The notes under the pieces were generated by a model. It was not told the DNA's origin. It saw only the letters and a program-made list of their open reading frames with translations, and did no database searches. A stretch of DNA of 64,000 nucleotides from Chloroflexota bacterium (GTDB taxonomy: Bacteria; Chloroflexota; UBA5177; JAJPKF01). The position numbers and the translations under genes were made by a program. Each line of letters begins with the position of its first letter. Positions within the stretch are counted from its first letter, which is position 1. The stretch spans positions 1,814-65,813 of the forward strand of contig DASRCF010000089.1 in NCBI GenBank assembly GCA_035653255.1, read 5' to 3'. Of this stretch, positions 2,243-50,912 are shown piece by piece.

Positions 2243-3529
2243 TTAGATGCGGCCGGCGCGCCTCAGGGGGCCGGTGATATCGAACACGTAGCGGAGCATC
2301 TCGGTATGGACCTCCGTCCGCTCGACGTCTCGCCGGCTCATGGCGATCTGGGCAGTCTGCAGCATGCGCTCGAAATCGTACTCCTGGTAGGAGCCGTCGC
2401 CTCCCCAGACAAAGCACGGCACGACTTTCGGCAGCATGCCGCCACCAAAGAGATTGCACCCGGTCCCGATTGTGCTGCCGGAGTTCAGAAGGACGCCGAT
2501 ACCCAGCTTCACGTGGTCACCGACCAGAGCCCCGAGCTTCGTCAGCCCGGTGTCGAGCTGCCTGTCCTGCAGCTCGATCCGGATGGAACCGTAGGTATTT
2601 TTCAGATCGCTGGTGGTGGTCATGGCTCCGACGTTGACCCACTCGCCGAGATAGCTGTGCCCGACGAAGCCGTCATGGTACTTGTTCGTGTAGGCATGGA
2701 AGATTGAACACTCTACCTCGCCACCGACCCGGCAATACGGGCCTATGCTCGTGTCCTCCCGCACCTTGCCGCCGACGATGCGTACGTACCGTCCGATGTA
2801 GCATGGCCCTTGGACGAAGGAGAAGGGCTGAATGACGGCGCCCTCGTCTATGTAGATCGGTCCGTCCCTGGCGTCGAGCACGGCTCCCGCCATGATCTCG
2901 GCGCTCGGATCCACGAACACCCGGTCCCGGTTGTAAATTGCGGCGGCCGGATGTGGCTGGGCCTGTTCCGGGTCGAGCCGCTGCATATCGAAGTCAGCGA
3001 CGATCTCGCGTCCATTTCGGTGAATGAGATCCCAAGGATACGCGACCATCTCGACCTCCACCCGCTGGACGCGGACCTCCCTAGCGATGGTGGCCATGAC
3101 ACTCTCGGTGTCCTGCTCCGCCAGCCATTTCAGACCGATGGTCAACCGCGGACCCGACAATCGTGCGGCCACCAGGTCGTCTCCACAGACGTAGAGGGCG
3201 TCCTCGCCGTCCGGCGTGATTTCCAAGTCCAGGTCACGCCTGGCGAGCAGGCGTCCGTTCAGGAAGAGGATTTGCCCATACGACCGAAGCAGGTCGCGGG
3301 AGTTGCCGATGAGCGAGGGCTGATTTTGGGAATCCGCCACTCGAATCAGGTATGGCCTGCACAGCTGGCGGATGGTGCAACCGTTGTAGACCAGACTGAT
3401 CTTCTTGAACAGCGTACGCATGCCGCAACGGAGATCGAAGACGGGCCTTGTATACGCCAGGGGCAGAAAGTTCTCTGCCTTCTCGTCTTCGAACACGCAT
3501 ACCGTCGGGGCCGCCATGATCCGGGTCAC
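2243..3529 (-). CDS. NTP-transferase-like protein with C-terminal left-handed beta-helix (GlmU/GCD1-like), likely a sugar-phosphate nucleotidyltransferase or degenerate paralog
   Basis: 428 aa. The C-terminal half is built of hexapeptide repeats ('IGRYVRIVGGKV...IGPYCRVGGEV...VGHSYLGEWVNVGAMTT...LGIGVLLNSGSTIGTGCNLFGG'). The N-terminal half resembles a nucleotidyltransferase fold. It overlaps the upstream YvcK-like gene by 4 nt, so the two are in an operon. Confidence 0.6.
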   Translation of the reverse strand: MTRIMAAPTVCVFEDEKAENFLPLAYTRPVFDLRCGMRTLFKKISLVYNGCTIRQLCRPYLIRVADSQNQPSLIGNSRDLLRSYGQILFLNGRLLARRDLDLEITPDGEDALYVCGDDLVAARLSGPRLTIGLKWLAEQDTESVMATIAREVRVQRVEVEMVAYPWDLIHRNGREIVADFDMQRLDPEQAQPHPAAAIYNRDRVFVDPSAEIMAGAVLDARDGPIYIDEGAVIQPFSFVQGPCYIGRYVRIVGGKVREDTSIGPYCRVGGEVECSIFHAYTNKYHDGFVGHSYLGEWVNVGAMTTTSDLKNTYGSIRIELQDRQLDTGLTKLGALVGDHVKLGIGVLLNSGSTIGTGCNLFGGGMLPKVVPCFVWGGDGSYQEYDFERMLQTAQIAMSRRDVERTEVHTEMLRYVFDITGPLRRAGRI

Positions 3530-4761
3530 CCTGCCGCTGCGCGCGCCCGCGTTTGTGCGATGATCCCACGAAGCGCCCGTGCCAGCTTGGTGGAGTCGTG
3601 CCGGATCACCGTCACGGTTTGCTCACTGGCCGTGCCCAGCTCCGGATCCAGCGTCAGCCTGGTCTCATTGATGACGTCCATGATGTCCGCTTCGATGACC
3701 GTCGAGCCGGCAATGTTGAGCATCGTCGAGCCCGGGAAGCTTCCTCCCAGGACAACCTTGGAAGCGTCGATGTGCTCTTCGGGCGTCACCATGATCGGAA
3801 ATGAGCCCGTGACCTCGTAGCGGTTGAGGATGTGGGATCCCGGGTAGCTTCGGTTGACGATGGTGTATTGGGGCGCGAAGCCGGCAAAATCACGAAATCT
3901 GGAGATGAAATCGGTGACGGTCCAGCCATCAGTGCGACCGGGCTCGGTCATCACGTTGCATATGAAGATGGTTGCCGCTCGTGCGGCCGCGAGGCGCTCG
4001 CGCAGCTTCGGCACCAGAAGACAGGGCACGACGCTGGTGTAGAAAGACCCCGGCCCAAACACGATCAGGTCCGAAGACTTGATGGCGGTGTCCAACTCCT
4101 GAGGAACGGCCCACGAGGAGGTGTCGGCAGGTGTACGGCTATCGGAGGATAGGAAGAGCTCTTCGACCGGCTGGTGTAGATCACGCTCTATCTCCGCGGC
4201 GCCGGCCACCACCTGCCCATCGGTGAGCCGGGCACAAAGCTGGACATTTTCGGGCGTGGCGAACATTACACGGGCGTCGGGATGTGAGGTGCGCACAAGG
4301 CGTCCTATGGTGCGGTAGTCGCTGCCGACGGCCGGCACTGCTGCCACCCGCCCCACGCTGTCGCTCAGCGCATTCAAGACAATGAGCAGACCCATGTGGC
4401 CGCTGAATAGAGTGGCATCGGGCAGGCCCTGACGCGAAACCGCGCTCAGCACCATCGACTGCCCGGCCTGCTGCTCGACCAGAGATAGGGTGAGGCCAAA
4501 GCGCCCCCGGTGCAGTCGCCAGATTCCAACCAGGACAAGAAGCAGGCCGAGGCCGAAGATCGCGAGCCCCTGTACGATCTTGCCGGCAAAGCGCAGCGTG
4601 ATGTCGTCGACCGCGTTCGCCGGCAGGATATGTCGAAGCAGGTTTAGAACCACCTCGCCGAGGCCGGCTCCGAGCAGCATCACGCCGACGGCCAGCACCA
4701 CCAGCCAGAGGTTACCTGTGGCTCCAAATCCACGCCGTCGCATCAAGACCTCACACTCCAA
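3526..4761 (-). CDS. YvcK/UPF0052 (CofD-like, gluconeogenesis-factor family) paralog with an N-terminal two-helix membrane anchor and a degenerate glycine-rich loop
   Basis: The C-terminal family motifs are intact ('DLIVFGPGSFYTSVVPCLLVP', 'ICNVMTEPGRTDGWT'). The usual 'IGGGTG' loop reads 'FSGHMGL'. The first ~100 aa contain two strongly hydrophobic segments. Confidence 0.75.
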   Translation of the reverse strand: MECEVLMRRRGFGATGNLWLVVLAVGVMLLGAGLGEVVLNLLRHILPANAVDDITLRFAGKIVQGLAIFGLGLLLVLVGIWRLHRGRFGLTLSLVEQQAGQSMVLSAVSRQGLPDATLFSGHMGLLIVLNALSDSVGRVAAVPAVGSDYRTIGRLVRTSHPDARVMFATPENVQLCARLTDGQVVAGAAEIERDLHQPVEELFLSSDSRTPADTSSWAVPQELDTAIKSSDLIVFGPGSFYTSVVPCLLVPKLRERLAAARAATIFICNVMTEPGRTDGWTVTDFISRFRDFAGFAPQYTIVNRSYPGSHILNRYEVTGSFPIMVTPEEHIDASKVVLGGSFPGSTMLNIAGSTVIEADIMDVINETRLTLDPELGTASEQTVTVIRHDSTKLARALRGIIAQTRARAAAG

Positions 4762-4915: not shown

Positions 4916-5950
4916 GTGGGAGTATATCAACCTTCGCCGCCGCCGTCAACAGTACCGAGAGCAGCACGTGTGCTGTTCATCGGCGGCGGCACTGGTGCGC
5001 CTGAGCTTCTCGTCGCCCTTCGCGACCGCCTCCCTGAGTCGGTGTGCTCCATTGTCGTGCCTGTGACCGATACCGGACGCAGCACTGGAGTAATCCGCCG
5101 CGTACTGGGCATTCCGGCTCCGGGGGACCTGCGTCACTGCCTCACCACCCTGGCCGGCTCCCGCTCGGAGTGGGGACGAACACTTGAGCGCCGGCTGCGC
5201 GCTCCCCCGGATGGCGGCTTTGACGGCATGGCGGTCGGCAACCTCGTGCTCGGGGCACTGACCCAGGAGACGGGCAACATCGGTCTGGCTGCCGGGCGAC
5301 TCTCCTCAATGCTCGGCGTGGCCGAGCAGGTGCTCCCGGTCAGCTTGGAAGACATCCACCTGTCAGCCGAGCTGGAGGACGGCACCAGGGTGCACGGCGA
5401 GTACGAGGTACGGCGCCCGGGCAAACAGGCCATCCGCTCGCTGTTCATTGAGGGTCAGCAAGAGGGAGCATGGGAGCCCGTTCGCACTGCCATCGAGGAG
5501 GCGACCCACTGCGTGCTGGGGCCCGGAAGCTTGTGGACGAGTCTTGGAGCGGTCCTGGAAGTCAGAGGCATTCGTGAAGCGCTGGCAACCTCGAGCGCTC
5601 GGATCCTATTCGTCTGCAACACCACCACCCAGCCCGGTCAGACCGATGGGCTCGACTTTCAAGGTCACATCGGGGTGGTGACCCGTCTCTCCGGTCGCGC
5701 GCCGGATGTCGTGCTTGCCAACACCGGCCAGCCCGAGCCGGACCTGGAAGAGGACCTGGCCCTCCATGATCTGCACATGGTGTACCCGCCGGCCATGGCC
5801 GGCCAGGATTCCGCCAGCGTCATCATCGGCAAGGACTTCCTGGCACGGTCGCGACCCGACAGGGACTGGCAGAAGCTGCACACTGCCTATCACGACATGA
5901 ACAAGGTGGCCGCCGCCCTGGTTCCGCTCATTCAGGAGGGCGCGGAGTGA
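4916..5950 (+). CDS. YvcK/UPF0052 family protein (canonical)
   Basis: The family motifs are all present: 'VLFIGGGTGAPELL', 'VTDTGRSTGVIRRVLGIPAPGDLRHCL', 'LGPGSLWTSL', 'FVCNTTTQPGQTDG'. The gene is divergent from the other YvcK paralog. Its start is either GTG 4916 or GTG 4970. Confidence 0.8.
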   Translation: MGVYQPSPPPSTVPRAARVLFIGGGTGAPELLVALRDRLPESVCSIVVPVTDTGRSTGVIRRVLGIPAPGDLRHCLTTLAGSRSEWGRTLERRLRAPPDGGFDGMAVGNLVLGALTQETGNIGLAAGRLSSMLGVAEQVLPVSLEDIHLSAELEDGTRVHGEYEVRRPGKQAIRSLFIEGQQEGAWEPVRTAIEEATHCVLGPGSLWTSLGAVLEVRGIREALATSSARILFVCNTTTQPGQTDGLDFQGHIGVVTRLSGRAPDVVLANTGQPEPDLEEDLALHDLHMVYPPAMAGQDSASVIIGKDFLARSRPDRDWQKLHTAYHDMNKVAAALVPLIQEGAE

Positions 5951-5980
5951 ACCCGGCCTTCAGAGTTTGTCTGCTGGGAT

Positions 5981-6003
5981 GGTTGCTGAATCCGGAAGCA
6001 ACC
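5981..6003 (+). terminator. stem-loop (7-bp stem GGTTGCT/AGCAACC, 9-nt loop) 31 nt after the YvcK2 stop, with no U-tract
   Basis: This is a perfect inverted repeat read directly from the sequence. It is not followed by a T-rich run, so a terminator role is uncertain. Confidence 0.25.
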
Positions 6004-6446
6004 TCCCGAACGCTTCCGCGGCGGTGACTCCCGGTGCACTCGTCCTCTGTACAAGCCAGAAAGGGCAGGCCGTAACACCGGCAGTATTCCCCTCCTCGAA
6101 CCCCAACCCGTGGGGAAGTTGGCGGGCCGACGCAAAAGTCTTCCCGCTCCCGCGTTCGGACCTCGTGACGTACCCCACACCCGACCAGGGCCCTTCGGCT
6201 GCTATTCGGCGTCGGCATTTTCTGCTGCCCCCGGCCGAATGCCGAGCCATGGTAGAGTGACACCTGCGCAGTCGCTTTGATGGGGCCAATCTTCCTACAG
6301 GCGACGAGTCCAGCGATGGGGGAGGTGTCTGCGAGCCAGGCTCACGGCGCCGGCGGCTCGTCCCCGCATCTCGCGCGCCCTATGCCATCTACCCCGTGGG
6401 GTGGAGACCGCGCGTCCTTCGACTCACCTCTAGGAGGATCATCGAA

Positions 6447-7664
6447 ATGGGACCTACGCGACTCATCCGGATCGCAGTCATGCCGCTCGCTCTGGCCCTC
6501 ACTCTGACTCTTCCCCTGCTCGGTTTCTCGCCGGCGGCCACGGGTGCTCCAGTGACACGGCACCTGGTATCCAGCGCCGTCAAAATAGAGATCCCCTTCG
6601 CTTTGTGGCCGTGTTCATGTGACAAGCGCAGCTTCGATCCCCAGCAGATTCGGAGCCAGAGCTCGAACCCCAACGCCGCCTACCACCGCGACCAGTACCA
6701 GAACGTGGATTCGGCATTGTTCCAGTACCGCGATGTCCCTCTAAACATCGGGAGTCAGACCATCCACCAGACCTGGCTCGCCACCCGTTACGCCGGCTCA
6801 GAAAACGCCTCAGACAGTCTCGACGACGCGACTTCGAACCTTGATGGACAGGGGAACTCGCAGCAGGGGTGCACGGATCAGAACAACCAGGCCGTGTCCA
6901 ACTGTGCCATTTATCTTCTGAGTCTGCGGGACGGGGACGGCAACCCCACGTCTTACGTTCTGTACGCCATATTCGCCATCGGCGCCACCGTCGGCGAGGT
7001 CAATCAGCACTACACGCTCGCCCAGTACGACGACAGCCACATTCAGGCAGCCCTGGACCGAGACTTCTTCCTGCTCCTCTCGGCGGCTTTGTCGGCGGTC
7101 CGCGCGGGTGGAAGTGGAATCAACCAGGGAGCTTGGCCCAGCCCGGAGTCCATGAACGCGCGCCTCTCGGCTGCCCAGGCTGACAGCGTCAAGATCAACC
7201 CGATTCCCTCACCCCTACGCAACCAGACCTACGCTAAGAGCGGGATGACAGCAGGTGTGCTGGAACGTGAGGTCTTGGCCGTTGGGCCGGGCAATCTCTA
7301 CAGTGGGATCTGGCTCGGATCGCTGTACTCATCTGCGGCCAAGGCAGCCGCAAGATACCAGAGGATCGAGACCTACCTAGGCAGCGGATCCTTCCGTGGA
7401 AGCTGTAGCAAGCCGAGCGGGAAGAGTGGTGCCACACCAAGCTGCGCCTTTTGGCAGCTCCCACCGGGCACACGAGGCATCTCCAATGGAGTCCTTTACG
7501 GTATTTTTGCCGTCGGCAACACCGTCGGTGAGGTCGCGGTGCTCGGAAGTCCGGCTGACTTCTCCAACAGCAGCCGCTTACAAATCCTCAAGAAAGCGTT
7601 TCGATCGCTGCTCACGGGCGGACTCGAAGCTGAGTACCAAGCCAACGGGCTCCAGGTGCCCTAA
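6447..7664 (+). CDS. secreted hypothetical protein made of two tandem copies of a Cys-pair / 'Y-x-F-A-[VI]-x-x-T-V-G-E-V' module
   Basis: SD 'TAGGAGGA' lies 8 nt before ATG 6447. The N-terminus is a signal peptide ('MGPTRLIRIAVMPLALALTLTLPLLGFSPAATGA'). The internal repeats are 'CTDQNNQAVSNC...YVLYAIFAIGATVGEV' and 'CSKPSGKSGATPSC...VLYGIFAVGNTVGEV'. The ORF track starts the frame at 6396. Confidence 0.6.
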   Translation: MGPTRLIRIAVMPLALALTLTLPLLGFSPAATGAPVTRHLVSSAVKIEIPFALWPCSCDKRSFDPQQIRSQSSNPNAAYHRDQYQNVDSALFQYRDVPLNIGSQTIHQTWLATRYAGSENASDSLDDATSNLDGQGNSQQGCTDQNNQAVSNCAIYLLSLRDGDGNPTSYVLYAIFAIGATVGEVNQHYTLAQYDDSHIQAALDRDFFLLLSAALSAVRAGGSGINQGAWPSPESMNARLSAAQADSVKINPIPSPLRNQTYAKSGMTAGVLEREVLAVGPGNLYSGIWLGSLYSSAAKAAARYQRIETYLGSGSFRGSCSKPSGKSGATPSCAFWQLPPGTRGISNGVLYGIFAVGNTVGEVAVLGSPADFSNSSRLQILKKAFRSLLTGGLEAEYQANGLQVP

Positions 7665-7720
7665 GGGCAGCAACCTCCCGTCGTCGCAGAATAGACTTTT
7701 GACCAGAGCCTGAACACGCT

Positions 7721-7749
7721 TTGCACAGCTTGAAGCCGGTCAGTACAAT
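7721..7749 (+). promoter_or_regulatory. sigma70-like promoter candidate (-35 TTGCAC, 17-nt spacer, -10 TACAAT) upstream of the S53 gene
   Basis: The hexamers are read directly from the sequence and sit about 45 nt upstream of ATG 7794. Confidence 0.3.
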
Positions 7750-7793
7750 GCACACGTTGCTGTGTGCACCATTGCAAATCTGCAGCAACCAGG

Positions 7794-10439
7794 ATGGATA
7801 GTTACGTGCGTGATACCCCTCTTAGAAGAGTCGTAAGCGTTCTCTCATCGCTCGCTCTGGCATCAAGCGCCGTTTTCGGGGCGGGTGCCGTTGCTTCACT
7901 GGCGGCGTCGCCATCACACGGGGCCACCCTCAGGGGCCAGGCTGTCATTCGCGGCGAGGTCGCACCACCGATCCTCAACCATGCGGCCAGGCTGATAGGC
8001 GCTCGCAACCCGGCGTCACGCATGGGAGTCTCGGTGGCCCTGCCGCTCCGTCATCCGGCCGAGCTGGACCGGCTGATCAATCGTATTGAGCTGGGCCAAG
8101 CCCGTCCCATCAGTCAAGCTCAGTTCGATGCCCGCTATGGGCAGCCGGCGGCCCGGGTCGTCGCCGTCACGCGCTGGGCCGCCTCGTATGGACTCCATGT
8201 CATCTATCACAGTCCGGACGGCCTTGACGTCAGCCTAGACGGAACTACTCAAGCCTTCGACCGAGCGCTCCGAATCCGCGTCAACGACTATCGCCTGGGA
8301 AGCCGGAGATTTTTCGCGGCAGCATCCAACCCGTGGGTGCCGGCGAAGCTTCACATCATGACCATCGTCGGTCTCAACAGCCTGATTCACGGCTACGCTC
8401 TCGGCCTGCATCGGCGAAGCTTTCCCGCCGGCGGTTACACTCCCAAGGAGCTTCGGGCCGCCTACGACGTGTCTCAGCACGCCGGCAGTGGCGCCGGCCA
8501 GACAATCGGCTTCACCCTTTGGGGCTCACCCACCCCCGCGGCCGACTTCAACAAGTTCTCCACCGTGACCGGCGATGCCCACATCACGCAATGCGCCGCC
8601 ACCACGACCGTCCCCACGCCCGCGGCCTGCCAGGGGACACACGCCGCCAACACCATCCAGTGGGTGCAGCTCGACGGCAAGAGCAACGACCTCCGCGGCA
8701 ATGACGAGACTGCGATGGATGTCGAGGAAGCGCACGGCATAGCGCCCAACAGTCACCTCAAGTACTTCCTGGGCGACGACGGCTCAGGCCAGGGTCTCGT
8801 CGATGTGATCGCGGCGGCGGCCAACGATACCGACAAGACCCTGCACGCAGTCAGCAACAGCTGGGGTGCCTGCGGTCCGGGACCCGGTGCCGGAGGCTGC
8901 ACCAGCCTGGTCAACGCGCAGACCAGCGAATTCAAACATGCCGTGGCTACCGGGAGAACCTTCTTCTTCTCCAGCGGCGACTCCGCCGCCTTTTCGGGCT
9001 GCCCGCGCCACGGCACCGAGCTACAGGTCACCTGCAACGGCACGCCCGAGCCGAGTTGGCCCGCCGACAGCCCGTTGGTGGTCGCCGTCGGAGGCACCAA
9101 CCTGCAGATGAACAGCAGCTTCACCGCCTATTCTTCTGAGAGCGTCTGGAGCAACCTCCAGTTCGGAAACTCCAGCGCCTACTCGGTCTCCGGGGGCGGC
9201 AGCGGTTGCGCCTCCTTCTTCGGCCGCCCACTGTTTCAGCAGGGCGTGGCCGGCGTGACCGCGAACGCTACGTGCGCGGGCCGTGCCGAGCCGGACGTCG
9301 CCGCCGATGCCGACGCCTCGAGCGGTGTGCTCGAGATCGCCACCTCGACCAACCAGAACAACCAGAATCCCAAGCAGGTCCAGTTCGTCGACGGCGGGAC
9401 GAGCCTGGCGGCACCACTCTGGACGGGAATGTCCGCCGACACCAACAATTTCCTGCTGGCACACCACAGGGCACTCCAAGGATTCTGGGCGCCGGAGATC
9501 TACAAGCTGGCGCAGACGGCCAGGTACGACAGCTACTTCCACGACGTGGTCTGCGGCTTCAACGGGTCTCCTGCCTCTCTCGGCTGGGACCAGGCGACCG
9601 GTTGGGGAAGCCCTGACTGGTTCAATCTGACCGAAGGCATCGCCGGCATAGCCGTGGGCGCCAAGCCGGCGCCTTCGAATTGCCAGATTCCGGCCTCAGA
9701 AGCGGTGGCGACGGCCGAGGCCAGCCTCAAGCTGCCCTTCAAGTTCTGGCCTCCAGGCACCGAAGCCAGCACCGAGCGGGTTCGCAGTGCGGGTGACAGC
9801 ATCTTCGACGATGCCACCTGCGATCAAACGAGTTGCAACAACTTCTTCCGCCAGTTCCATGGGCACAGCTACGCCAGCTTCGGCTTCAAGGGCGGAGCCG
9901 AGGAGCAGGCGGTGTTCACGATCGGGGGCGACTCAAGCAGCCCATTCGCCTTTTTCGCCGGCAGTTACTACCCCAACAGTCTCGACGCGCACAGGGTCAT
10001 CGAGGATGCGGTGGCGCACGCCAATAGCGCCTTTCACATAGGCAGCTTCGATTGCTCGGTCAACCTGGAGGGCGTCAGCACGCTGACGCCGGATTGCAAG
10101 GCGATGCAGTTCCAGTTCCCCGGCCCTCCGGTCGTCGACGCCACCATCTATCTCTTTGCAGTGAACAACACCGTCGGCGAGCTGATCGTTGAGGCCAACG
10201 ATAGCACAGTGAGCGCCAGCCAGAGCAATACCAACACCTATCTTGCTGATTCGGACCACTTAGCCGGGTTCGAGATTGCGCAGCTCTACGTGGCCTCGAA
10301 CGCTACCTCCGTGGTCTATCCGGCGCCGTCACTCCGACACCGGGCGTTAGGTCCGCTGAAATTCGATGCCGTGCCCAGCCTTCGCCTCTCAGAAGGGCCC
10401 GCACGAGATCTGCCTACCCCTTCCTCTATCAGTCGATAG
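7794..10439 (+). CDS. S53 family serine-carboxyl peptidase (sedolisin/kumamolisin-like) with a ~300-aa C-terminal extension
   Basis: It has a signal peptide, a pro-kumamolisin-type activation region, and a catalytic domain with 'GGTSLAAPLWTG' (the SGTSxAAP serine motif). The C-terminal extension carries 'CDQTSCNNF...DCKAMQFQFPGPPVVDATIYLFAVNNTVGEL', which is homologous to the repeats of the upstream ORF. An alternative start is GTG 7764. Confidence 0.85.
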   Translation: MDSYVRDTPLRRVVSVLSSLALASSAVFGAGAVASLAASPSHGATLRGQAVIRGEVAPPILNHAARLIGARNPASRMGVSVALPLRHPAELDRLINRIELGQARPISQAQFDARYGQPAARVVAVTRWAASYGLHVIYHSPDGLDVSLDGTTQAFDRALRIRVNDYRLGSRRFFAAASNPWVPAKLHIMTIVGLNSLIHGYALGLHRRSFPAGGYTPKELRAAYDVSQHAGSGAGQTIGFTLWGSPTPAADFNKFSTVTGDAHITQCAATTTVPTPAACQGTHAANTIQWVQLDGKSNDLRGNDETAMDVEEAHGIAPNSHLKYFLGDDGSGQGLVDVIAAAANDTDKTLHAVSNSWGACGPGPGAGGCTSLVNAQTSEFKHAVATGRTFFFSSGDSAAFSGCPRHGTELQVTCNGTPEPSWPADSPLVVAVGGTNLQMNSSFTAYSSESVWSNLQFGNSSAYSVSGGGSGCASFFGRPLFQQGVAGVTANATCAGRAEPDVAADADASSGVLEIATSTNQNNQNPKQVQFVDGGTSLAAPLWTGMSADTNNFLLAHHRALQGFWAPEIYKLAQTARYDSYFHDVVCGFNGSPASLGWDQATGWGSPDWFNLTEGIAGIAVGAKPAPSNCQIPASEAVATAEASLKLPFKFWPPGTEASTERVRSAGDSIFDDATCDQTSCNNFFRQFHGHSYASFGFKGGAEEQAVFTIGGDSSSPFAFFAGSYYPNSLDAHRVIEDAVAHANSAFHIGSFDCSVNLEGVSTLTPDCKAMQFQFPGPPVVDATIYLFAVNNTVGELIVEANDSTVSASQSNTNTYLADSDHLAGFEIAQLYVASNATSVVYPAPSLRHRALGPLKFDAVPSLRLSEGPARDLPTPSSISR

Positions 10440-10590
10440 CTTACAGCACAGCGAGAGGCCGGCCGCGCTCGAGGGAGCGTGGCCGGCCTATGTTTTTCAT
10501 TCAGTAAGCCCACACGGTCAAAGCCCCGCCGCCTGCTTCCATCCAACCCAGTAGCCGACGGCGCCTTCCGACCCGCTCGCGACAACAGAA

Positions 10591-10616
10591 AATCCCGGAG
10601 CATATGCTCCGGGATT
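10591..10616 (-). terminator. intrinsic terminator for the small minus-strand ORF (13-bp perfect stem AATCCCGGAGCAT/ATGCTCCGGGATT followed on the minus strand by TTTCTGTTG)
   Basis: It is a perfect palindrome. On the minus strand it runs straight into a T-rich tract, 28 nt after the ORF stop. Confidence 0.5.
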
Positions 10617-10643
10617 CTGTGCGACGAGTACTACTGAGGTGGT

Positions 10644-10802
10644 CTAGGAGCAGGGAATACTGCAGCCACTGGTGTGGGTGCTGTTGCAGCTGGTGACGGC
10701 GTGAACCTCCAGGCGGCCCCGATACACGATCGCCGGGGTCTCATACGGCTTGCGCTCCTGGGGGTTCGCCTTCTGCTCGGACGCCTTGGGATTCTCGCTC
10801 AC
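10644..10802 (-). CDS. 52-aa peptide with a Ser/Thr/Cys-rich C-terminus (MSENPKASEQKANPQERKPYETPAIVYRGRLEVHAVTSCNSTHTSGCSIPCS)
   Basis: A GTG start lies 5 nt after the SD GGGAGGAG. The ORF has its own terminator and is not in the ORF track because it is under 60 aa. Its organisation is leader-like N-terminal part plus a core-like C-terminal part. Confidence 0.45.
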   Translation of the reverse strand: MSENPKASEQKANPQERKPYETPAIVYRGRLEVHAVTSCNSTHTSGCSIPCS

Positions 10803-11161
10803 AGGTGCTCCTCCCTATCTCAACTGGTCATGTAACAGATTACAGCAGGTGACCAATTTCGCGCTATTCGTCGGTATCCCCTCCGGCACGATCGGTTCAA
10901 TTCCACTGTACCAAGGCATCTCTCCGATGTAAAGTGTCGGTCGCGGGCTCGCTCGCGAGCGGCCACCCTCAGACCCTCCTTGCCAGCCTCGAAGCAGACC
11001 GAAGTATCTTGGAAGAGCGCCTGAGCGCGGACGGAGGAGATGTCCGAGGGTGCTTCAGGGCGGGGTCTGCCGATCGAGGCTGCCGTACGGACGGTAACAC
11101 GAGCCTCCGTGTGGCCCCTACGCCACCCGAATGCCTGATGCCATTTTTTGAGAGGAATGAG

Positions 11162-42935: not shown

Positions 42936-44447
42936 CTATTTCTGTCGTCGAATCGGTATCTCGTACAGCTTGATGAGTCCGATGGTTTGGAAACGATCGG
43001 CCCGTGCGACCACCTTCTGAGTGGCTTTCGGCCATTTCCGTCGCGGCCAGGAGCCCGGCTCGACGATGAGGAAGACCGTTCCCGCCTTCGAGACCGGCGG
43101 ATGACCGAGCCGGCTCAGGACGTAGTGGTAGCCCGCCGGATAGTTGAGATATGACGCCATGCGCAGCTCGAAGGGGCGCCCCTTGGACCGGCTCACGATC
43201 TTCCGGTCGACTCGCAGCACGTGGCCGTAGGTATCGTCGGGCTGGAGATCGTTTCTGGTGATCGCGGCATCGGCCACGGTGGACTTGGGGGTGACGAAGC
43301 TGTAGGTCCAGGTCTGACGAGTGCCCACTACAACAAGGGCCGCCACAAGTATCACTCCAACCGCTTTGCCGGCACGGTACCGGCCGACCAGCCAGAGCAA
43401 CGCCCCCAAGAGCACAAACGGAATCACGAAAAGGCAGACCATGTACTGCTCGAACACCTGCTTGCGATAGATCTCAAAGCCCACGGCGGCGACGACCAGG
43501 AGCAGCATGGCCAGCCTCACTTCCCAGTTGGCCTCGCCGGACAACGACCGCAACCCACTGACGGCAAGCCCGGCAGCGCCAAGGCAGACCGTTAAGACCA
43601 CCGTCAAGGGTACATTCGGAACCGACAGCGCTCGGTAGAAGAGGTTGAAGAGCAGCTTGAGGCTGGAGGCGCCCCTGCTCGGCGCGTTGCTCTTTCCATG
43701 GATGAGCACCGCCAGCCAAGCCTTCAGATTCGCCAGGTTGTGGGTTCCGTCGTAGATGAGCAACGGCGAGGAGATCACGACGAAGATGATGACTGCACCA
43801 CAGAGAAGTGCGGCCGAGGGCCGTGGGGGTCGAGCCCAAAGAATGAAGACCAGAGCGACCGGAATCACGAAGAGGTTGACCGGCTGAAGCTGAACGAGAC
43901 AGGCGAGAGATGCGGCCACGACCAGAATCGATTCGGTTCGTCCTCGCTTCCACGAAACGAGCGCCCATAGGAGCGCCAGGGTGAAGAAGGGGGTGATGGT
44001 GGGGTTCCAGGGCCGTCTCGAATACTCGACCATGAGGAAGGAAGCCGCCATCACCAGGGCTGCTCCTCCGGCCGGCAGTGATCCCAGAGGTGCTTTCAGG
44101 TACAGAAAGAGCATGACCGTGGCGGCCACGCCGAAGATCCCCACCAAGATGGTTGGACCGACGGGCGAACCGTTCGACAGCCACATCGGTATCGCTTCCA
44201 GGTAGTAGAACAGCGGGCCTAGGTGCAGAGTATGGCCGATGGAAAGGCTGGGACCGAGCAGCGGCAGTTTCCCGTGGATGAGGCTCCATTCGGCGGCGCT
44301 CTCTCGCCCCTCATCGCCCATGAAGTGGAAGTCCGTGCCGATCATCCAGAACCGGAGGACCGAGCCGAGAGCCACCACCAGGACGAGGAGGGCATACCCG
44401 AGATCGAAGTTGCTTGCGGGTCGCCGGTCACTGAATCGGCGGATCAT
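42936..44447 (-). CDS. GT-C fold membrane glycosyltransferase (ArnT/PMT-like, GT39/GT83 family)
   Basis: There are 11-13 TM helices. The first periplasmic loop carries a 'DE' motif ('FHFMGDEGRE'). Confidence 0.7.
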   Translation of the reverse strand: MIRRFSDRRPASNFDLGYALLVLVVALGSVLRFWMIGTDFHFMGDEGRESAAEWSLIHGKLPLLGPSLSIGHTLHLGPLFYYLEAIPMWLSNGSPVGPTILVGIFGVAATVMLFLYLKAPLGSLPAGGAALVMAASFLMVEYSRRPWNPTITPFFTLALLWALVSWKRGRTESILVVAASLACLVQLQPVNLFVIPVALVFILWARPPRPSAALLCGAVIIFVVISSPLLIYDGTHNLANLKAWLAVLIHGKSNAPSRGASSLKLLFNLFYRALSVPNVPLTVVLTVCLGAAGLAVSGLRSLSGEANWEVRLAMLLLVVAAVGFEIYRKQVFEQYMVCLFVIPFVLLGALLWLVGRYRAGKAVGVILVAALVVVGTRQTWTYSFVTPKSTVADAAITRNDLQPDDTYGHVLRVDRKIVSRSKGRPFELRMASYLNYPAGYHYVLSRLGHPPVSKAGTVFLIVEPGSWPRRKWPKATQKVVARADRFQTIGLIKLYEIPIRRQK

Positions 44448-46291
44448 CGACGAATGTAGAGGGCGTCGCAGGATGCGACCTGACCGGGGGGACAGAAGTA
44501 GGCCTTGAGCAGCCGGTAGTGGGTGTGAACCCAGGTGGCGAATGGAGCCATCTCAACCGACCGGAACCGCGGCCACATGGCGACGACCGCCGGCCGGTAC
44601 CGGCGCACATCCGTGATTGCCTCGGTCGCGCTCAACTTACCAGTCGCCATCCGCACGTAGGAGGTGTCGACGAGGTCGGGAACGCAGAGTCGGTCTGCTT
44701 CGACGCAGATCAGAGGGTCGGCGGTTGCCACCATCTGGTCGGGCGCCGTTCGGCTTCGGATCACCGCCGCGGCCAGACTCCGGTCATCGATCCCCGGTTT
44801 CACCAGAAGGCCGCTGTAGGAGCTGACCAGCCGGGGTAGCAGCAGGAGGTAGACAACCGTCGCGCTCACCGCCAAGACCCGTAGGAGTCGGCCCGAGGCT
44901 AATGGAAGTGCCGGACGCCGTGATGCGTCCCCGGACGCCGGCTCGCCTTGAGGCGACTGAAAGGGCGAGACGGAGCGCCGATAGGCGTCCGGCGTGTGGA
45001 CGCTGCCCGTAGCCGGGTTGCCCAGCTGGCCAGGCAAGACGAACGCGACCGCGATGCCGGCGAGGACGGCCGCCGGGAGCAACACGATGGCCGGATGGTG
45101 GCCCATGAGCGGATGGTACGCCGCTAGGAGGATCAGCGTTCCCAGGGCCCACGTGTCGAGGATGAGTCCCATCCGCCAGTCCCACACCAGCAGCAGCAGT
45201 CCACCGGCCAGCGCGAGCACCACCAAACCGATATCGGGCGACAGGAAGCTGAGCACCATGTGCACGTTCGACGCCGACTGAAGCCCGGCCGACTGACTGC
45301 TGGCATGGAGGCGATCGGACACCATCTGGGACCACTCCTGGGGTCCGAACCATAGCAGCGATGCCACAAATGGAGCGGCCGCGACAATCACAAAGGCCAA
45401 CGCCGACGACAGCACGGGCATGACCGTATCACGCCGGTCCCGCGCATCCCACAGCACTATCAGGAGCGTCACGCCGAGCGGGGCCAGGAGCGCGAAGGCA
45501 AAGAACTTGGTGAGCACCGCGAGAGCGAAGAAGAGCCCGGATGCGGCTGACCAGCCCAGCTTGCGCTGCCTCAGCCAGAGCAGCAGGAAGGCCATGCTGA
45601 GGCCCGAGAGTGCCATCATCGGCACCTCCTCCTCGACGGCATGGCTATACACCAGAAACTCCGGCGAGACCGCCAGGACGAGGGCGGCCCCGCCGGCCGC
45701 GACCGTGCCTCTCGCGAGTCCTGCTATCCCGAACGCTCCCAGGAGCGCCAGCACCGCGAAGATCAGCACCGCCAGTCGCGCCTGCCAGATTCCCTCACCA
45801 AGGAGGCGGTAGGCTGCCAAGATAGCGGCGACGAAGAGCGGAGGCTGCGCATTGTAGATCTGGGTGTACAACCGGTACCCATGGGCCATGAGCGCTGCGG
45901 TGGCCATGTAGACGCCCTCGTCATAGTCGTTGACGGCGGCACTGCCGAACGTGAAGCCCGTCAGGTGAAGGCTCTCGTAGGCGACGACGATAGCGACGCC
46001 GGCCAGCAGCATCAGCAGCGGGAGCCAGATGAGGACCGGCCGCGCGAAGGACGGGAAGGCTTTGGCGGCGCGTTCAGACGGTGCCAGGATCACGCTTCTC
46101 GGCCATCCCTCCATCGAGGCGCCGAGACACCGCCGCCGCACCCCCTCCTGTGGCTCGCGCCGCGTCATTATAGGAACCCGAAGACACCTGGGAGGTTCCG
46201 AGCTCTCAAGAGTCTCAGCGACCGGTCGACGCACGAGTTCGGGACCGGAGATGCGTCGTCGTAGGGGAGGACGAACCGTAGCGGAAGGCAA
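44444..46291 (-). CDS. GT-C fold membrane glycosyltransferase (ArnT/PMT-like), second paralog
   Basis: Loop 1 carries 'NDYDEGVYMATA' (DE motif). It overlaps the downstream GT by 4 nt. The start is uncertain (possibly ATG 46114). Confidence 0.7.
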   Translation of the reverse strand: MPSATVRPPLRRRISGPELVRRPVAETLESSEPPRCLRVPIMTRREPQEGVRRRCLGASMEGWPRSVILAPSERAAKAFPSFARPVLIWLPLLMLLAGVAIVVAYESLHLTGFTFGSAAVNDYDEGVYMATAALMAHGYRLYTQIYNAQPPLFVAAILAAYRLLGEGIWQARLAVLIFAVLALLGAFGIAGLARGTVAAGGAALVLAVSPEFLVYSHAVEEEVPMMALSGLSMAFLLLWLRQRKLGWSAASGLFFALAVLTKFFAFALLAPLGVTLLIVLWDARDRRDTVMPVLSSALAFVIVAAAPFVASLLWFGPQEWSQMVSDRLHASSQSAGLQSASNVHMVLSFLSPDIGLVVLALAGGLLLLVWDWRMGLILDTWALGTLILLAAYHPLMGHHPAIVLLPAAVLAGIAVAFVLPGQLGNPATGSVHTPDAYRRSVSPFQSPQGEPASGDASRRPALPLASGRLLRVLAVSATVVYLLLLPRLVSSYSGLLVKPGIDDRSLAAAVIRSRTAPDQMVATADPLICVEADRLCVPDLVDTSYVRMATGKLSATEAITDVRRYRPAVVAMWPRFRSVEMAPFATWVHTHYRLLKAYFCPPGQVASCDALYIRR

Positions 46292-46386: not shown

Positions 46387-48066
46387 TTGAAGCGCTGGCT
46401 GGCCCTTCCGCCCGCCGTTTCGCTGACCTTGCTCTCGTTCGCGGTCTACATGCTGACCCTGCCGGCTGATCTTCGTAACAATGCCGATACCGTGGACCGC
46501 TTTTTCGTCACCCGTAGCCTCCTCCACGGTCACCTCAGCATTGTCTGCGGTCAGCTGAAGAACGCCGACACGCGACTTGCTTTCGGACGGCACCACTGTC
46601 TCTACGCCGTCTACGCTCCTGGCCAGTCGCTGCTGATGGCGCCGCTCTATGTCGCCGGCAAGATCGCTGCCCTCATCACCCAGGCTCCGTCGGCCTTCGC
46701 AGTCGCCATCTCGGTCAGATCTCTCGACGCCGTTCTGGCTGCCCTCTGCGTCGCCGTGTTCTTCTTCCTCTGTGTCGAGGCCGGCTACAGCCGTCGCACC
46801 GCCATCATCCTTGGATTGATCCTGGCCTTCGCCTCCACCCTCTGGCCGGATCAACAGAGCGGTCAGGAGCACACCCAGGTAACGCTTGCTCTTCTGGTCT
46901 CGGGATATGCCGCGCTGAAGTCAGTACGGCTGCCGCGCTCACGCCCCTCCGAGCGCGACGCACCGCCGTCTAGGTGGCGCACCTCGGAAGTCTGGACCTA
47001 TGGCTCGGGGGCCGCGGCTGGGTTCGGCCTGCTCACCCGCTACGACTTCGCGGTTTCCGCGGCCATCGTCTTCCTGTTCTTGGCCTGGGCTTCAAGTCGT
47101 GACTCGTGGCGAACCACGGCGGAGACCGGCGTCCGTTTCATGGTGGGAATGCTGCCATTCCTGGTGGCCGACGGGCTCTGGAATCTCGTTCGCTTCGGCT
47201 CTTTCTTCAGCACTGGACGTGCGCCCGCCGACCAGTTCGGCTTTCCCATCTGGCAGGGCATCGCCAACCTGCTGGCGAGCCCAGGCAAGGGGATCATCTG
47301 GTATGTCCCGCTGGTTTGGTTGCTACCGCTGGCCGCGGCGTCGTTCTTCCGGCGCTCGCGTCCACTGTTCTGGTTGTGCGCGGGTCTGGTCGCGAGCGCG
47401 GTGCTGTTCTATGCCAACGTCATCTACTGGCACGGAGATCCGGGATGGGGACCGCGGTACCTCTTTCCCGTCGTTCCATTTGTCGTCTTACCCCTCGGTG
47501 AGCTGCTGGAGCGCTGGAAGAAATATCGAGGTTGGCTCAGGGGCTCCATCATCGCTGTTGTGGGTCTGAGCCTGGTTCTCCAGCTGGCCGCCGTCTCGGT
47601 GGATCCCTGGCGGTTCTGGTATCACCTGATTCACCAGCGCCAGAGCCAGGGGCAGGTCTGGGTCTGGAGCCCGACGCACTACAGCTACTACTGGAATCTT
47701 GCCGACGCTCCCGAACTGTACCAGTTCGTCGCCGCCAAGGACGTGCTCGATATCGCGCTCGGCAACAAGCAGGCCTACATTAGGCCGGTGGCCGCCTGCT
47801 TCTCAGGCCGAAACACCGGCACGCTCGGCGGCGTCTCGTGCCGGCCGCTCGATACCATCAGTCCCATCTGGCTCAACGACCGTTACCAGTGGGTGACGCC
47901 GGGGCCGGTGGCGCTTTCCCTGCCCGAACGCGTCATCATCGTCGGCGTGCTGCTCCTCATTGCCGGATACGGAGGGCTAGCCCTTGGGCTGTACGGGCCG
48001 GCAAGGACCGAAGCGTCGAAGCTGAACCGTAGCTCAAGGGTATTGCAGCCCGGTCCACCGGCCTGA
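46387..48066 (+). CDS. polytopic membrane protein, GT-C-like (third putative glycosyltransferase)
   Basis: The 559-aa protein has more than 10 TM helices and a large C-terminal periplasmic-type domain. It is divergent from the two GT-C genes. Confidence 0.55.
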   Translation: MKRWLALPPAVSLTLLSFAVYMLTLPADLRNNADTVDRFFVTRSLLHGHLSIVCGQLKNADTRLAFGRHHCLYAVYAPGQSLLMAPLYVAGKIAALITQAPSAFAVAISVRSLDAVLAALCVAVFFFLCVEAGYSRRTAIILGLILAFASTLWPDQQSGQEHTQVTLALLVSGYAALKSVRLPRSRPSERDAPPSRWRTSEVWTYGSGAAAGFGLLTRYDFAVSAAIVFLFLAWASSRDSWRTTAETGVRFMVGMLPFLVADGLWNLVRFGSFFSTGRAPADQFGFPIWQGIANLLASPGKGIIWYVPLVWLLPLAAASFFRRSRPLFWLCAGLVASAVLFYANVIYWHGDPGWGPRYLFPVVPFVVLPLGELLERWKKYRGWLRGSIIAVVGLSLVLQLAAVSVDPWRFWYHLIHQRQSQGQVWVWSPTHYSYYWNLADAPELYQFVAAKDVLDIALGNKQAYIRPVAACFSGRNTGTLGGVSCRPLDTISPIWLNDRYQWVTPGPVALSLPERVIIVGVLLLIAGYGGLALGLYGPARTEASKLNRSSRVLQPGPPA

Positions 48067-48090: not shown

Positions 48091-49767
48091 GTGATGTCTG
48101 CGATTGTGATGCCGATACGTGTGCTGGTCGCCGCACTCGCGGCTTTTCTCGGGGCGACATTGCTCGTACAGTATGTTGCGCCATCTACCCGCGGCGCCGC
48201 TCCGGCTCGCTCGCGGCCGGCGCCCGGCTCGGCTGCCGGCCTGGTGCAGCACGGAACGGGAGTGCTGTCGGCCTATCGAGACCTCGGCTCCGTGACCAGA
48301 GGTCAGGTGTCACTGGTCTTGACCATGCGCACGCGACGATTCTCGAGCCGGTCGAAGGGGTCAATGCTCCACGTCGATCCCTTCCGTTCGCGGTACGCTC
48401 CCTCCGCCCATTCTTTGCGGCGCGTCGAGCGCTACCTCCGACTTCGTGGGCTCGGGGTTGCGCCGCAGCTCGACGGCGCGTGGCTCCTTGTTCGCGGGGC
48501 GGTGGACCGAGTGGACCGAATCTTCCACATCGACGTTCACCGCTATGGACGGAGACATCTGCCGGCGTTCGAGTCGAGCTCGCCCGGCACCGTGCCCACC
48601 GATATTCGAGGGATGGTCTCCGGGGCGGGCCGCATCTCGACGATGCCCATCCGGACCGACATCGTCCCGGCCGGCGGGTTCAGCCCCTCCGGAATCCAGG
48701 CGGCCTATGACATCACCCCGTTGATCAATCAGGGTATTGACGGCCGGGGCCAGACCGTCGTCTTCGTCGAGATCGACGGGCTCGACGGTGCGTCGCTCAA
48801 GGCCTACGCCGCTCGTTTCCACCTGCCACCCTTCCACATCACCGTTCACGGACCGGCCTTCCAGCCGGGAGATGAAGCCACCATGGATGTCGAGGTCGTT
48901 CATGCCATCGCGCCCATGGCCAAGCTTGTCGTGTACAACATCCCTGGAAATACCAGCAACGCGGAATGGGACAGCAGGACCGCCCAGATGATCTCCCACG
49001 TCTCCGGAGACGTCATCAGCGAGAGCGTCGGGCTCTGCGAATCCGACTGGAGCGCGGCGGATTTGCGGGCCCTTCAGCTCGCGTATGTCAAGGCTGACCT
49101 CAGTGGCGAGGCGCCGTTCGCTTCCACCGGAGACAATGGCGCCTTCGGCTGCATTCAAAACGGGCAGGTTCCGTCGACCTCCAATCTCGGCATCCAGGTT
49201 CCCGCCGGCTGTCCCGGCGTCACGGCCGTGGGCGGAACGCGTCTCAGCGTGACGTCAAGCGGCTCATGGTTTGATGAGACGGCGTGGGAGGATCCCATCG
49301 AAACGGGCGGAAGCGGCGGCGGGCCCAGCATCTTCTTCAAGCAGCCGGGCTGGCAGAAGGCGCCCGGCGTAGCCGCTCAGGACATCCTGAACAATCCGAG
49401 CCATGGACGCATGGTTCCGGATGTCTCCGCCGATGCCGACAACGCGAGCGGCATGGACATCAATCTCACCGGAGGGCGGAGCGAAGGCGGAGGCACCAGC
49501 CAGGCGGCGCCGATATGGGCGGCCATCACCGCCCTGGCCGACGAGTACCTCGGGAGCCATCACCACGCCCCGGTCGGCTGGATGAATCCGGCGCTCTACC
49601 ACTTGGCCTCGACGAAGCAACCCTTTCCGCCATTCCACGACGTCGTCACGGGGACCAACCTCAACTACCCCGCGGCGACGGGCTATGACATGGCCACCGG
49701 CCTCGGATCACCCGATGCCTACAACCTGGCCCGGGACCTACTTCATTACTCGCCGGCCCACCCGTGA
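48091..49767 (+). CDS. S53 family peptidase (sedolisin), second copy
   Basis: It has a signal/TM N-terminus, a pro-domain, the catalytic 'GGTSQAAPIWAA', and an Asp/Glu triad context ('EATMDVE'). Confidence 0.85.
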   Translation: MMSAIVMPIRVLVAALAAFLGATLLVQYVAPSTRGAAPARSRPAPGSAAGLVQHGTGVLSAYRDLGSVTRGQVSLVLTMRTRRFSSRSKGSMLHVDPFRSRYAPSAHSLRRVERYLRLRGLGVAPQLDGAWLLVRGAVDRVDRIFHIDVHRYGRRHLPAFESSSPGTVPTDIRGMVSGAGRISTMPIRTDIVPAGGFSPSGIQAAYDITPLINQGIDGRGQTVVFVEIDGLDGASLKAYAARFHLPPFHITVHGPAFQPGDEATMDVEVVHAIAPMAKLVVYNIPGNTSNAEWDSRTAQMISHVSGDVISESVGLCESDWSAADLRALQLAYVKADLSGEAPFASTGDNGAFGCIQNGQVPSTSNLGIQVPAGCPGVTAVGGTRLSVTSSGSWFDETAWEDPIETGGSGGGPSIFFKQPGWQKAPGVAAQDILNNPSHGRMVPDVSADADNASGMDINLTGGRSEGGGTSQAAPIWAAITALADEYLGSHHHAPVGWMNPALYHLASTKQPFPPFHDVVTGTNLNYPAATGYDMATGLGSPDAYNLARDLLHYSPAHP

Positions 49768-50912
49768 GCGAGCAGAGCCTCCCTCCCACCGAAAAGATCT
49801 GCCCCGTCTGTGGCCAGGACGTTCCCGCAGGCGAGTACTGCGGCGCCTGCGGAGCGTACCTGAGAACCGGTTCGGCGGCGCGTAGCCACGCTTTCGCCGC
49901 TCACCCCGAGGAGCACCTCTTCCATCCGGGAATCATCTCCACGCTCTTCCCGCATCTGCCCAGGCGGCATGCAGCCCCATTCCGGCTGGCACTGCTCGCC
50001 GGCGTCGTCGTTCTGGTGGTCTTCGGACTACTTGGTTTGACCGGTGCCGGGATCGCTACAGCGGCGCTCGTAGTGCCCTTGCTCTATCTCATCTACCTGT
50101 ACGAGGTGGACGTCTACGAGGACGAGCCGCTCATCGTCATCGGGTCAACTTTCATTTTGGGACTCCTGATCGGGATTCCCTGGGCTCTCTACACGGGGCA
50201 TTTCAGCACAGACACCCTGGTTGCCAACGCCACCTTCGGCGCTCCGCTCTGGAAGATCCTTGCCTACGGCCCCGGTCTTTCGCTGGCGGCTCAGGCCCTA
50301 ATGCTGGTCGGATGCCTGGTCATCTATGCCCGCAAGCGCTATGACGAGGTGCTGGACGGCTTTGTCTTCGGCGCCGCAGGAGCGCTCGGGTTCACGCTGG
50401 CGGTCACGGTGGTCGAGCTGTGGCCGCAGCTCAGCCAGGGAGTCAGGAGCGGGGCACCGACCGTCGACAACACCCTGGCGATCCTCGGCCGCGGCCTTCT
50501 CCTACCCTTCATTGCCGCCACCGCGACAGGGTTGATCGGCGGCGCCCTCTGGCTTCGCCGTGGCAAGACCAGGCCGGCAACGGCCTTTGGCTGGACGACA
50601 AGAATCGACTCCGTCGTGCTGCTGGTGATCTGCCTCTGGGTCGGCCTGGGCCTGGTCAATGTATTGGTGACCTCGATCGTGGTCACGGTGTGCATCTACG
50701 CGGCTGTCGCGATGGTGTTGTTGCTAGCGGCTCGGGTCGCGCTGCACCACATGCTGCTGGCCGAGGCCGTCGATACCAGGGTCGGGCCTGACACCGTCTG
50801 TTTTCACTGCCATCATTCCGTGCCACGAATGGCGTTCTGTCCCCATTGCGGCGTCGCTACCAGAGCCACGCCGAAGACCGGTCATGGCCGGCTGGAGAGG
50901 GCGTACCGATGA
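49764..50912 (+). CDS. membrane protein with N- and C-terminal zinc-ribbon motifs, possibly a PrsW-family intramembrane protease
   Basis: The N-terminus carries 'CPVCG...CGACG' and the C-terminus 'CFHCHH...CPHCG'. The 'DGFVFGAAGALGF...E' motif is PrsW-like. It overlaps the S53 stop by 4 nt. Confidence 0.5.
   Translation: MSEQSLPPTEKICPVCGQDVPAGEYCGACGAYLRTGSAARSHAFAAHPEEHLFHPGIISTLFPHLPRRHAAPFRLALLAGVVVLVVFGLLGLTGAGIATAALVVPLLYLIYLYEVDVYEDEPLIVIGSTFILGLLIGIPWALYTGHFSTDTLVANATFGAPLWKILAYGPGLSLAAQALMLVGCLVIYARKRYDEVLDGFVFGAAGALGFTLAVTVVELWPQLSQGVRSGAPTVDNTLAILGRGLLLPFIAATATGLIGGALWLRRGKTRPATAFGWTTRIDSVVLLVICLWVGLGLVNVLVTSIVVTVCIYAAVAMVLLLAARVALHHMLLAEAVDTRVGPDTVCFHCHHSVPRMAFCPHCGVATRATPKTGHGRLERAYR

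Follow-up and report, generated by a model that had tools for sequence, protein, structure and literature searches.

The extracellular sensor domain of the Ser/Thr kinase PknH has two disulfides and a conserved cleft; a small ligand, as yet unknown, has been proposed for it (PMC3601408). Rv3705c (also called TiME) and LppH are annotated in the Pfam family PknH_C, which is named for the extracellular domain of PknH (PMC3726780). TiME has two conserved disulfides, and its soluble domain builds 7- and 8-fold rings (PMC8378821). Here we describe a protein module that is predicted to have a PknH-like fold and that occurs three times in two adjacent genes of a Chloroflexota metagenome-assembled genome (MAG; assembly GCA_035653255.1, contig DASRCF010000089.1, positions 1,814 to 65,813). 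The stretch analyzed, called the window below, is 64,000 nucleotides long and has a G+C content of about 62%. Gene A encodes a secreted protein that is composed of two tandem modules. Gene B, situated downstream on the same strand, encodes a pro-sedolisin (peptidase family S53) with a third copy of the module in its C-terminal extension. The module represents a new sequence family, and its most likely function is the binding of an extracellular ligand or polymer.

The relationship of the three copies is evident from pairwise comparison. The two halves of the A protein align with each other over 108 amino acids (aa) with an expectation value (E) of 4e-9 in BLASTP, and the second module of A aligns with the last 300 aa of B over 138 aa (E 1e-7). 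The first module of A matches the C-terminus of B at E 0.012 in an alignment that is collinear over 243 aa and includes the opening 'hKhxhPFxxWP' strand. A profile hidden Markov model (HMM) that excludes B was made from four free modules, those of A and of P0002, which is the only close homologue of A. Among the 758 six-frame open reading frames (ORFs) of the window this model matches B at aa ~679-820 (E 6.7e-7, 24.8 bits) and nothing else, the next best value being E 0.56. A model made from P0002 alone matches B at E 6e-7. The codons of the most conspicuous motif form a three-copy DNA repeat of 27 nucleotides at positions 6972, 7506 and 10155.

An initial annotation, made from the window alone, had grouped the same three segments, and the profile search with B excluded bears this out. 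Its dimensions have to be revised. The module spans ~183 aa instead of ~170 aa; it opens with the strand h-K-h-x-h-P-F-x-x-W-P and closes with a long helix. The spacing within the Cys pair, given as x9-11, is x10, x12 and x13 in the three copies. The A protein does consist of two tandem modules, its length being 405 aa and not 406 aa, and the extension of B does carry one copy, its length being ~265 aa and not ~300 aa. The second S53 peptidase of the window (48091-49767) was correctly described as having no such extension: it is 558 aa long, stops ~25 aa after the sequence TGLGSP and contains no module.

In the first module of A the Cys pair is C142-x10-C153, followed by the motif YAIFAIGATVGE at aa 173-184. 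The corresponding elements of the second module are C320-x12-C333 and YGIFAVGNTVGE at aa 351-362, and the protein has no tail beyond this module. In the module of B, LKLPFKFWP occupies aa 655-663, the Cys pair is C764-x13-C778, and YLFAVNNTVGE lies at aa 796-806. Additional cysteines are present in a CxC sequence after the WP motif of the first A module (C56 and C58; 6612-6620), found also in P0002, and in a C-x4-C pair in the same region of the B module (C686 and C691; 9819-9836), found also in P0006. These are lineage-specific Cys pairs.

With a five-module profile, HMMER was run exhaustively over 1.84 billion representative proteins and identified only 65 family members at E<=1e-3, the few named ones coming from MAGs labelled Chloroflexota. 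The members have three architectures. Tandem modules occur in A, P0002, P0003, P0004, P0005 and P0007. The majority have a single N-terminal module, which is followed by a beta-rich region of ~130 aa. The third architecture is that of a long S53 peptidase in which the module occupies about aa 635-825, as in P0008, P0018, P0028, P0037 and some fragments. The Cys pair is present in all of the 48 modules that were aligned, with a spacing of 3-22 residues, and 31 of them contain just two cysteines. The Glu residue of NxVGE is kept in 46 of the 48, and the other conserved residues are W-P, Y, G and WLGS-Y. By a simple hydropathy heuristic, a signal-peptide-like hydrophobic stretch is found in 38 of the 45 members that have an intact N-terminus. 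In the sub-branch of tandem proteins formed by P0003, P0004, P0005 and P0007 each module has an extra Cys-rich insert (G-x-CG...P-x-P-x-x-C). The 848-aa P0037 has an apparent frameshift in the middle of its module, which leaves the C-terminal ~100 aa out of frame, and P0013 is an in-frame fragment of a nearly identical gene.

The module-bearing S53 genes have a narrow distribution. A scan of the GTDB genomes found them in only three MAGs (MFD05502.bin.2.114, MFD09603.bin.2.92 and Centralia_MAG_67), all labelled 'proteobacterium' by their submitters, in conflict with the Chloroflexota label of the MAG that contains the window. The genes are present there in multiple copies, with four in MFD05502.bin.2.114, two of which are 13 kb apart. 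Frameshifts interrupt several of them (loci L014-L020) in the long-read assemblies. The 48-sequence alignment is too diverse to serve as a query for a pattern scan; the pattern FA[VI][GN][NA]TVGE, run against the GTDB genomes and Joint Genome Institute (JGI) metagenomes, found only the known P0002 contig.

At the level of sequence the module is unnamed, as the initial annotation had proposed. Neither A nor the C-terminal extension of B has a match in Pfam or NCBIfam, and for the 48 module sequences no relevant Pfam model came up, even with the threshold relaxed to E<=10. When 62 full-length family members were compared with Pfam, the S53 parts alone were recognized. A match to one of the ordinary accessory domains, such as PKD, fn3 or a carbohydrate-binding module (CBM), was named in the annotation as possible counter-evidence; it was looked for and not found, as was the case for PPC, and the predicted fold is alpha/beta rather than an all-beta sandwich. 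The PknH_C model (PF14032) has no match to A or B at E<=1, nor to the 48 modules at E<=10. The family profile finds no sequence in the PDB, including no PknH, TiME or Rv0999 chain at E<=10.

The structure prediction is more informative. The AlphaFold2 model of the second A module, calculated from the 48-sequence alignment, has a predicted local distance difference test score (pLDDT) of 89.3 and a predicted template modelling score (pTM) of 0.87. It shows an antiparallel sheet packed against helices and a long C-terminal helix. The B module was modelled separately, with an input that contained no sequences derived from the fetched loci. For both independent models the best structural matches are the PknH extracellular sensor domain (4esq) and, in second place, TiME (7cu8). 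Foldseek is in agreement, with 4esq at E 7e-5 and a probability of 1.00. Judged from these models, the fold of the module is very probably that of a PknH-like extracellular domain, within the PsbP/Mog1-type alpha/beta sandwiches. The predicted fold is that of the solved PknH_C members and the location is extracytoplasmic, as in that family, yet in place of the two conserved intramolecular disulfides there is a single invariant Cys pair, which may or may not correspond to the C-x16-C disulfide of TiME and PknH. Because the best structural matches are PknH_C members and there is no PF14032 match in sequence, the module is a new, divergent and unnamed sequence family with a known fold. That the initial annotation recognized it as no named domain is borne out for the sequence. 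The fold is not a new one, and at this level alone the result comes near to the match with a well-characterized domain that the annotation itself had given as a counter-argument.

The A protein has a Sec-type signal peptide, with a Kyte-Doolittle maximum of 2.18 at aa 6-20. A lipoprotein anchor was considered and ruled out, as there is no lipobox Cys at the cleavage site and the first Cys is residue 56. In three independent assemblies of the same organism (L003, L004 and L005) A and B are both called as genes and are adjacent, so that their arrangement is not an assembly artifact.

The B protein is a complete and, from its sequence, apparently active secreted pro-sedolisin. It has a signal peptide and the features by which MEROPS defines family S53, namely a pro-domain, a subtilisin-like catalytic domain, the Glu-Asp-Ser triad and the oxyanion Asp. 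Over the pro-domain and the catalytic domain, a five-sequence profile aligns with pro-kumamolisin (1t1e) at E 1.3e-59; such a profile is needed, as a single-sequence phmmer search of the PDB with B gave no match. The extension past the kumamolisin-like catalytic domain is made up of a ~25-aa linker, the ~200-aa module and a ~38-aa disordered tail. The alignment of B with all of its module-bearing S53 relatives has two further invariant cysteines, the one where the catalytic domain ends ('FHDxxCG'), the other in the linker. The short S53 peptidase has Thr at the former position (FHDVVTGTN). The two residues, C597 and C640 in B, may be joined in a clade-specific disulfide, by which the extension would be tied to the catalytic domain. 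Pro/Arg-rich tails of ~30-50 aa that end in R, H or K follow the module in B, P0002, P0005, P0008, P0018 and P0028, and could be a signal for processing, sorting or wall binding.

A free-standing copy of the accessory domain next to the peptidase had suggested in the initial annotation that A is a decoy, inhibitor or chaperone of B. Because such a relationship predicts a conserved gene pair, the pairing was examined across genomes. Ten other module-bearing S53 loci were scanned in six frames with an HMM, three of them metagenomic (L006, L007 and L009) and seven belonging to GTDB genomes (L014-L020), and none has a free module ORF within 6-8 kb. At L014, whose protein is the nearest to B with 53% identity in the extension, the flanking genes are unrelated. 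Neither of the two other tandem-module loci has an S53 gene: there is none in the available 386 nucleotides upstream or 3.9 kb downstream of P0002, the closest homologue of A (41% identity), and none within 6 kb on either side of P0003. The conserved co-occurrence expected of a cognate inhibitor or immunity pair is thus not seen at these loci. The initial annotation had proposed to check whether the two-repeat ORF is always syntenic with long S53 genes; it has no S53 neighbor at the two other tandem-module loci.

A neighbor-joining tree of the 48 modules places the S53-borne copies in one clade and the tandem modules in a second, and the rest of the tree is made up of single modules. P0013 and P0053, which also fall into the S53 clade, are themselves S53 fragments. 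The module of B is 38% identical to that of P0008 and 22-28% identical to those of A. Since they belong to separate deep clades and have diverged to this extent, the S53 fusion is old and A is not a recent copy or paralogue of the B domain. An origin of the adjacency by recent tandem duplication was ruled out, the A modules being closer to P0002, P0003, P0004, P0005 and P0007 than to B, and the B module being closest to those of other S53 proteins; the DNA similarity between the two genes, which is limited to the 27-nucleotide motif, also counts against it. The adjacency of A and B is lineage-specific and does not constitute a conserved two-gene system.

These results bear directly on the possibility that A is a dedicated partner of B, be it an inhibitor, a decoy or a chaperone, that binds the protease or competes for its target. 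The two genes are on the same strand, separated by 100-130 nucleotides in which no terminator-like hairpin was found, and may be co-transcribed; the pairing recurs in the three assemblies, and both proteins come from a very rare family. On the other hand, the absence of any similar pair at the ten S53 loci, the unrelated surroundings of L014, the absence of an S53 neighbor at P0002 and P0003, the separation of the modules in the tree and the promoter-like site of B itself make a dedicated partnership improbable. The proximity of A and B might also be accidental, in genomes in which S53 genes and module genes have both expanded. This fits the presence of two S53 genes in a window of 64 kb, the MAG with four module-bearing S53 genes and the lack of conserved synteny, but not the shared strand, the short spacer and the missing terminator. 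We regard it as unlikely, if well worth considering, and it is compatible with the explanation preferred below. A further possibility, in which the modules are TiME-like units that oligomerize into rings or tubes and the A and B copies co-assemble into a structure of the envelope, draws on the position of TiME as second-best structural match of both models and on the rings of its soluble domain (PMC8378821). In A no N-terminal transmembrane helix is evident beyond the cleavable signal peptide, and the synteny evidence against a partnership applies equally here, so that this is the least credible of the alternatives.

The C-terminal extensions of many secreted subtilases are removable pro-regions or helpers of folding and secretion. 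The B module might have the same function and be missing from the mature enzyme. Many S53 genes found by the motif scan do have long and varied C-terminal extensions, in ORFs of up to 2859 codons, and the disordered tail and flexible linker of B could be processed. However, copies of the module also make up free secreted proteins or stand next to a beta-rich domain, which means that its function does not depend on a protease. In addition, the clade-invariant cysteines of the catalytic domain and linker suggest a permanent tether, and there is no Pfam match to PPC or to a pro-peptide. A removable pro-region therefore has a small probability.

The explanation that we prefer combines the PknH-like fold with a role in binding or targeting, and taken as a whole it is rather more probable than its negation. 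For the role as such we would allow an even chance. The module would be extracytoplasmic, stabilized by one disulfide, and most likely bind a ligand or polymer outside the cell. This is suggested because the closest relatives in fold are extracytoplasmic binding or sensor domains, because the module occurs without any protease, and because it is joined to different partners, as is typical of binding modules. On B, itself apparently an active secreted acid protease, it would probably direct the enzyme to a substrate or to a component of the envelope, possibly being held against the catalytic domain by the clade-specific disulfide. The A protein would consist of two binding units only, derived from a different old branch of the family, and may recognize the same target as B or a related one. 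Co-anchoring, which the initial annotation had named as well, may apply in this sense, with one target bound by both proteins.

Several observations weigh against this explanation. There is no link to PknH_C at the level of sequence, and the case for homology depends on predicted structures, at 10-15% identity. The module has one conserved Cys pair, compared with the two disulfides of PknH and TiME. Since the ligand of PknH is unknown, the term 'binding domain' has little specific content. Finally, two members of a very rare family are unlikely to become neighbors by pure chance, and there could be a functional link between them in this lineage.

The main gain is a fold, and hence a working hypothesis, for a small family of 'hypothetical' secreted proteins of uncultured soil bacteria. 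The combination of an S53 peptidase with a PknH-like module is a new domain arrangement for sedolisins. In Pfam, the entry for PknH_C mentions fusions to trypsin-like peptidases, which would set a direct precedent. A distant branch of this fold, joined to an enzyme whose activity can be read out, could reveal independently what PknH-type domains recognize. The more exciting view of the locus has to be corrected, as there is no evidence for a conserved pair of a protease gene and a decoy or inhibitor gene. It is conceivable, if far from probable, that a little-known soil lineage has in this module a new extracytoplasmic recognition domain, which directs acid-active sedolisins to a specific polymer of the envelope or the environment, with A being in this organism a co-expressed competitor or adaptor that tunes where or whether B acts. 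If true, this would be a protease-targeting system that has no described counterpart.

Table 1. Features of genes A and B and of related loci. Positions are those of the window unless a locus is named.
Feature	Position	Strand	Description
Gene A	6447..7664	+	secreted protein, 405 aa, two tandem modules; exact match to HZT96073.1 in the protein collection (hypothetical protein, Chloroflexota MAG)
Sec-type signal peptide of A	6447..6548	+	aa 1-34; basic n-region, hydrophobic core, ATGA|P
Module copy 1, in A	6576..7124	+	aa 44-226; HMM envelope
Module copy 2, in A	7113..7661	+	aa 223-405
Promoter-like site	7720..7749	+	TTTGCA-18-TACAAT in the A-B spacer; agrees with the consensus, which in itself does not demonstrate function
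Gene B	7764..10439	+	pro-sedolisin (S53); 891 aa from GTG 7764, 881 aa from the gene callers' ATG 7794
Pro-kumamolisin activation domain of B	7998..8381	+	N-terminal, aa 79-206; PF09286 (Pro-kuma_activ), E 1.7e-12
S53 catalytic domain of B	8427..9641	+	about aa 222-626; PF00082 (Peptidase_S8), E 1.1e-8
Catalytic Glu/Asp of B, E315 and D319	8706-8720	+	ETAMD; invariant in kumamolisin alignment
Oxyanion D406 of B	8970-8984	+	SSGDS; invariant in kumamolisin alignment
Nucleophile S547 of B	9393-9404	+	GGTS; invariant in kumamolisin alignment
End of catalytic domain and linker of B	9537..9686	+	C597 (FHDVVCG; 9552-9554), C640 (linker; 9681-9683)
Module copy 3, on B	9717..10322	+	aa 652-853
C-terminal tail of B	10323..10436	+	Pro/Arg-rich, aa 854-891; predicted disordered (pLDDT <50, model residues 220-254)
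Intrinsic-terminator-like hairpin after B	10456..10489	+	strong; 15-bp stem with 12 GC pairs, then a T-run
Neighborhood of short S53	44444-46291; 46387-48066; 48091-49767; 49764-50912	-; +; +; +	short S53 at 48091-49767
P0066 and BNR/Sortilin-like loci	L011 5248-9266; L012 2-3432		

Two divergently transcribed paralogues of the CofD family (YvcK-like) are situated directly upstream of A, at 3526-4761 on the minus strand and 4916-5950 on the plus strand, and are followed by a non-coding gap of ~500 bp (5951-6446). An Rfam scan of positions 5900-10950 found no RNA family. Between the terminator-like hairpin of B and the gene of an M3 oligoendopeptidase there is a near-perfect palindrome of 18+18 nucleotides with no spacer (10586-10621; CAGAAAATCCCGGAGCAT/ATGCTCCGGGATTCTGTG), which from its sequence may be an operator site. 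The short S53 gene has a PMT_2 mannosyltransferase gene and a gene for a 559-aa polytopic membrane protein that has no Pfam match on its upstream side, and a gene for a PrsW-like protease begins within its 3' end. At L014 a PMT_2/YkcB_C gene (L014 4115-6052) lies directly upstream of the S53 gene. Glycosyltransferases of the GT-C type may be linked to secreted sedolisins. Among the single-module proteins, the gene of P0066 (421 aa) has an overlap of 4 nucleotides with the end of a 918-aa BNR/Sortilin-like repeat gene in two Chloroflexota MAGs. This could be a conserved pairing, unlike that of A and B.

The module resembles the sensor domain of PknH (Mycobacterium tuberculosis Rv1266c, 4esq, PF14032) in being extracytoplasmic and probably disulfide-stabilized, with an unknown ligand. 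The identity is 11-15%, with no match at the HMM level. PknH has two disulfides and is attached to a Ser/Thr kinase, whereas the module has one Cys pair and is found on a sedolisin, in tandem or together with a beta-rich domain. PknH is from Actinomycetota, while the module family comes from soil MAGs labelled Chloroflexota or 'proteobacterium'. TiME (7cu8 and 7cu9), also a PknH_C member, builds ring- and tube-shaped assemblies in the envelope of mycobacteria. Compared with it, the module does not have the membrane-anchoring N-terminal helix, and the first TiME disulfide is missing in most members. The alpha/beta sandwiches of the PsbP/Mog1/LpqN/DcrB type lie clearly further from the module than the PknH_C structures do, and show no sequence relationship to it. 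The first ~625 residues of B, in turn, resemble kumamolisin and other sedolisins, constituting a complete pro-sedolisin with conserved catalytic residues. The kumamolisin chain stops where the linker of B starts; B has a clade-conserved Cys in place of the residue after 'FHD-x-x', and its chain continues into the extension that carries the module.

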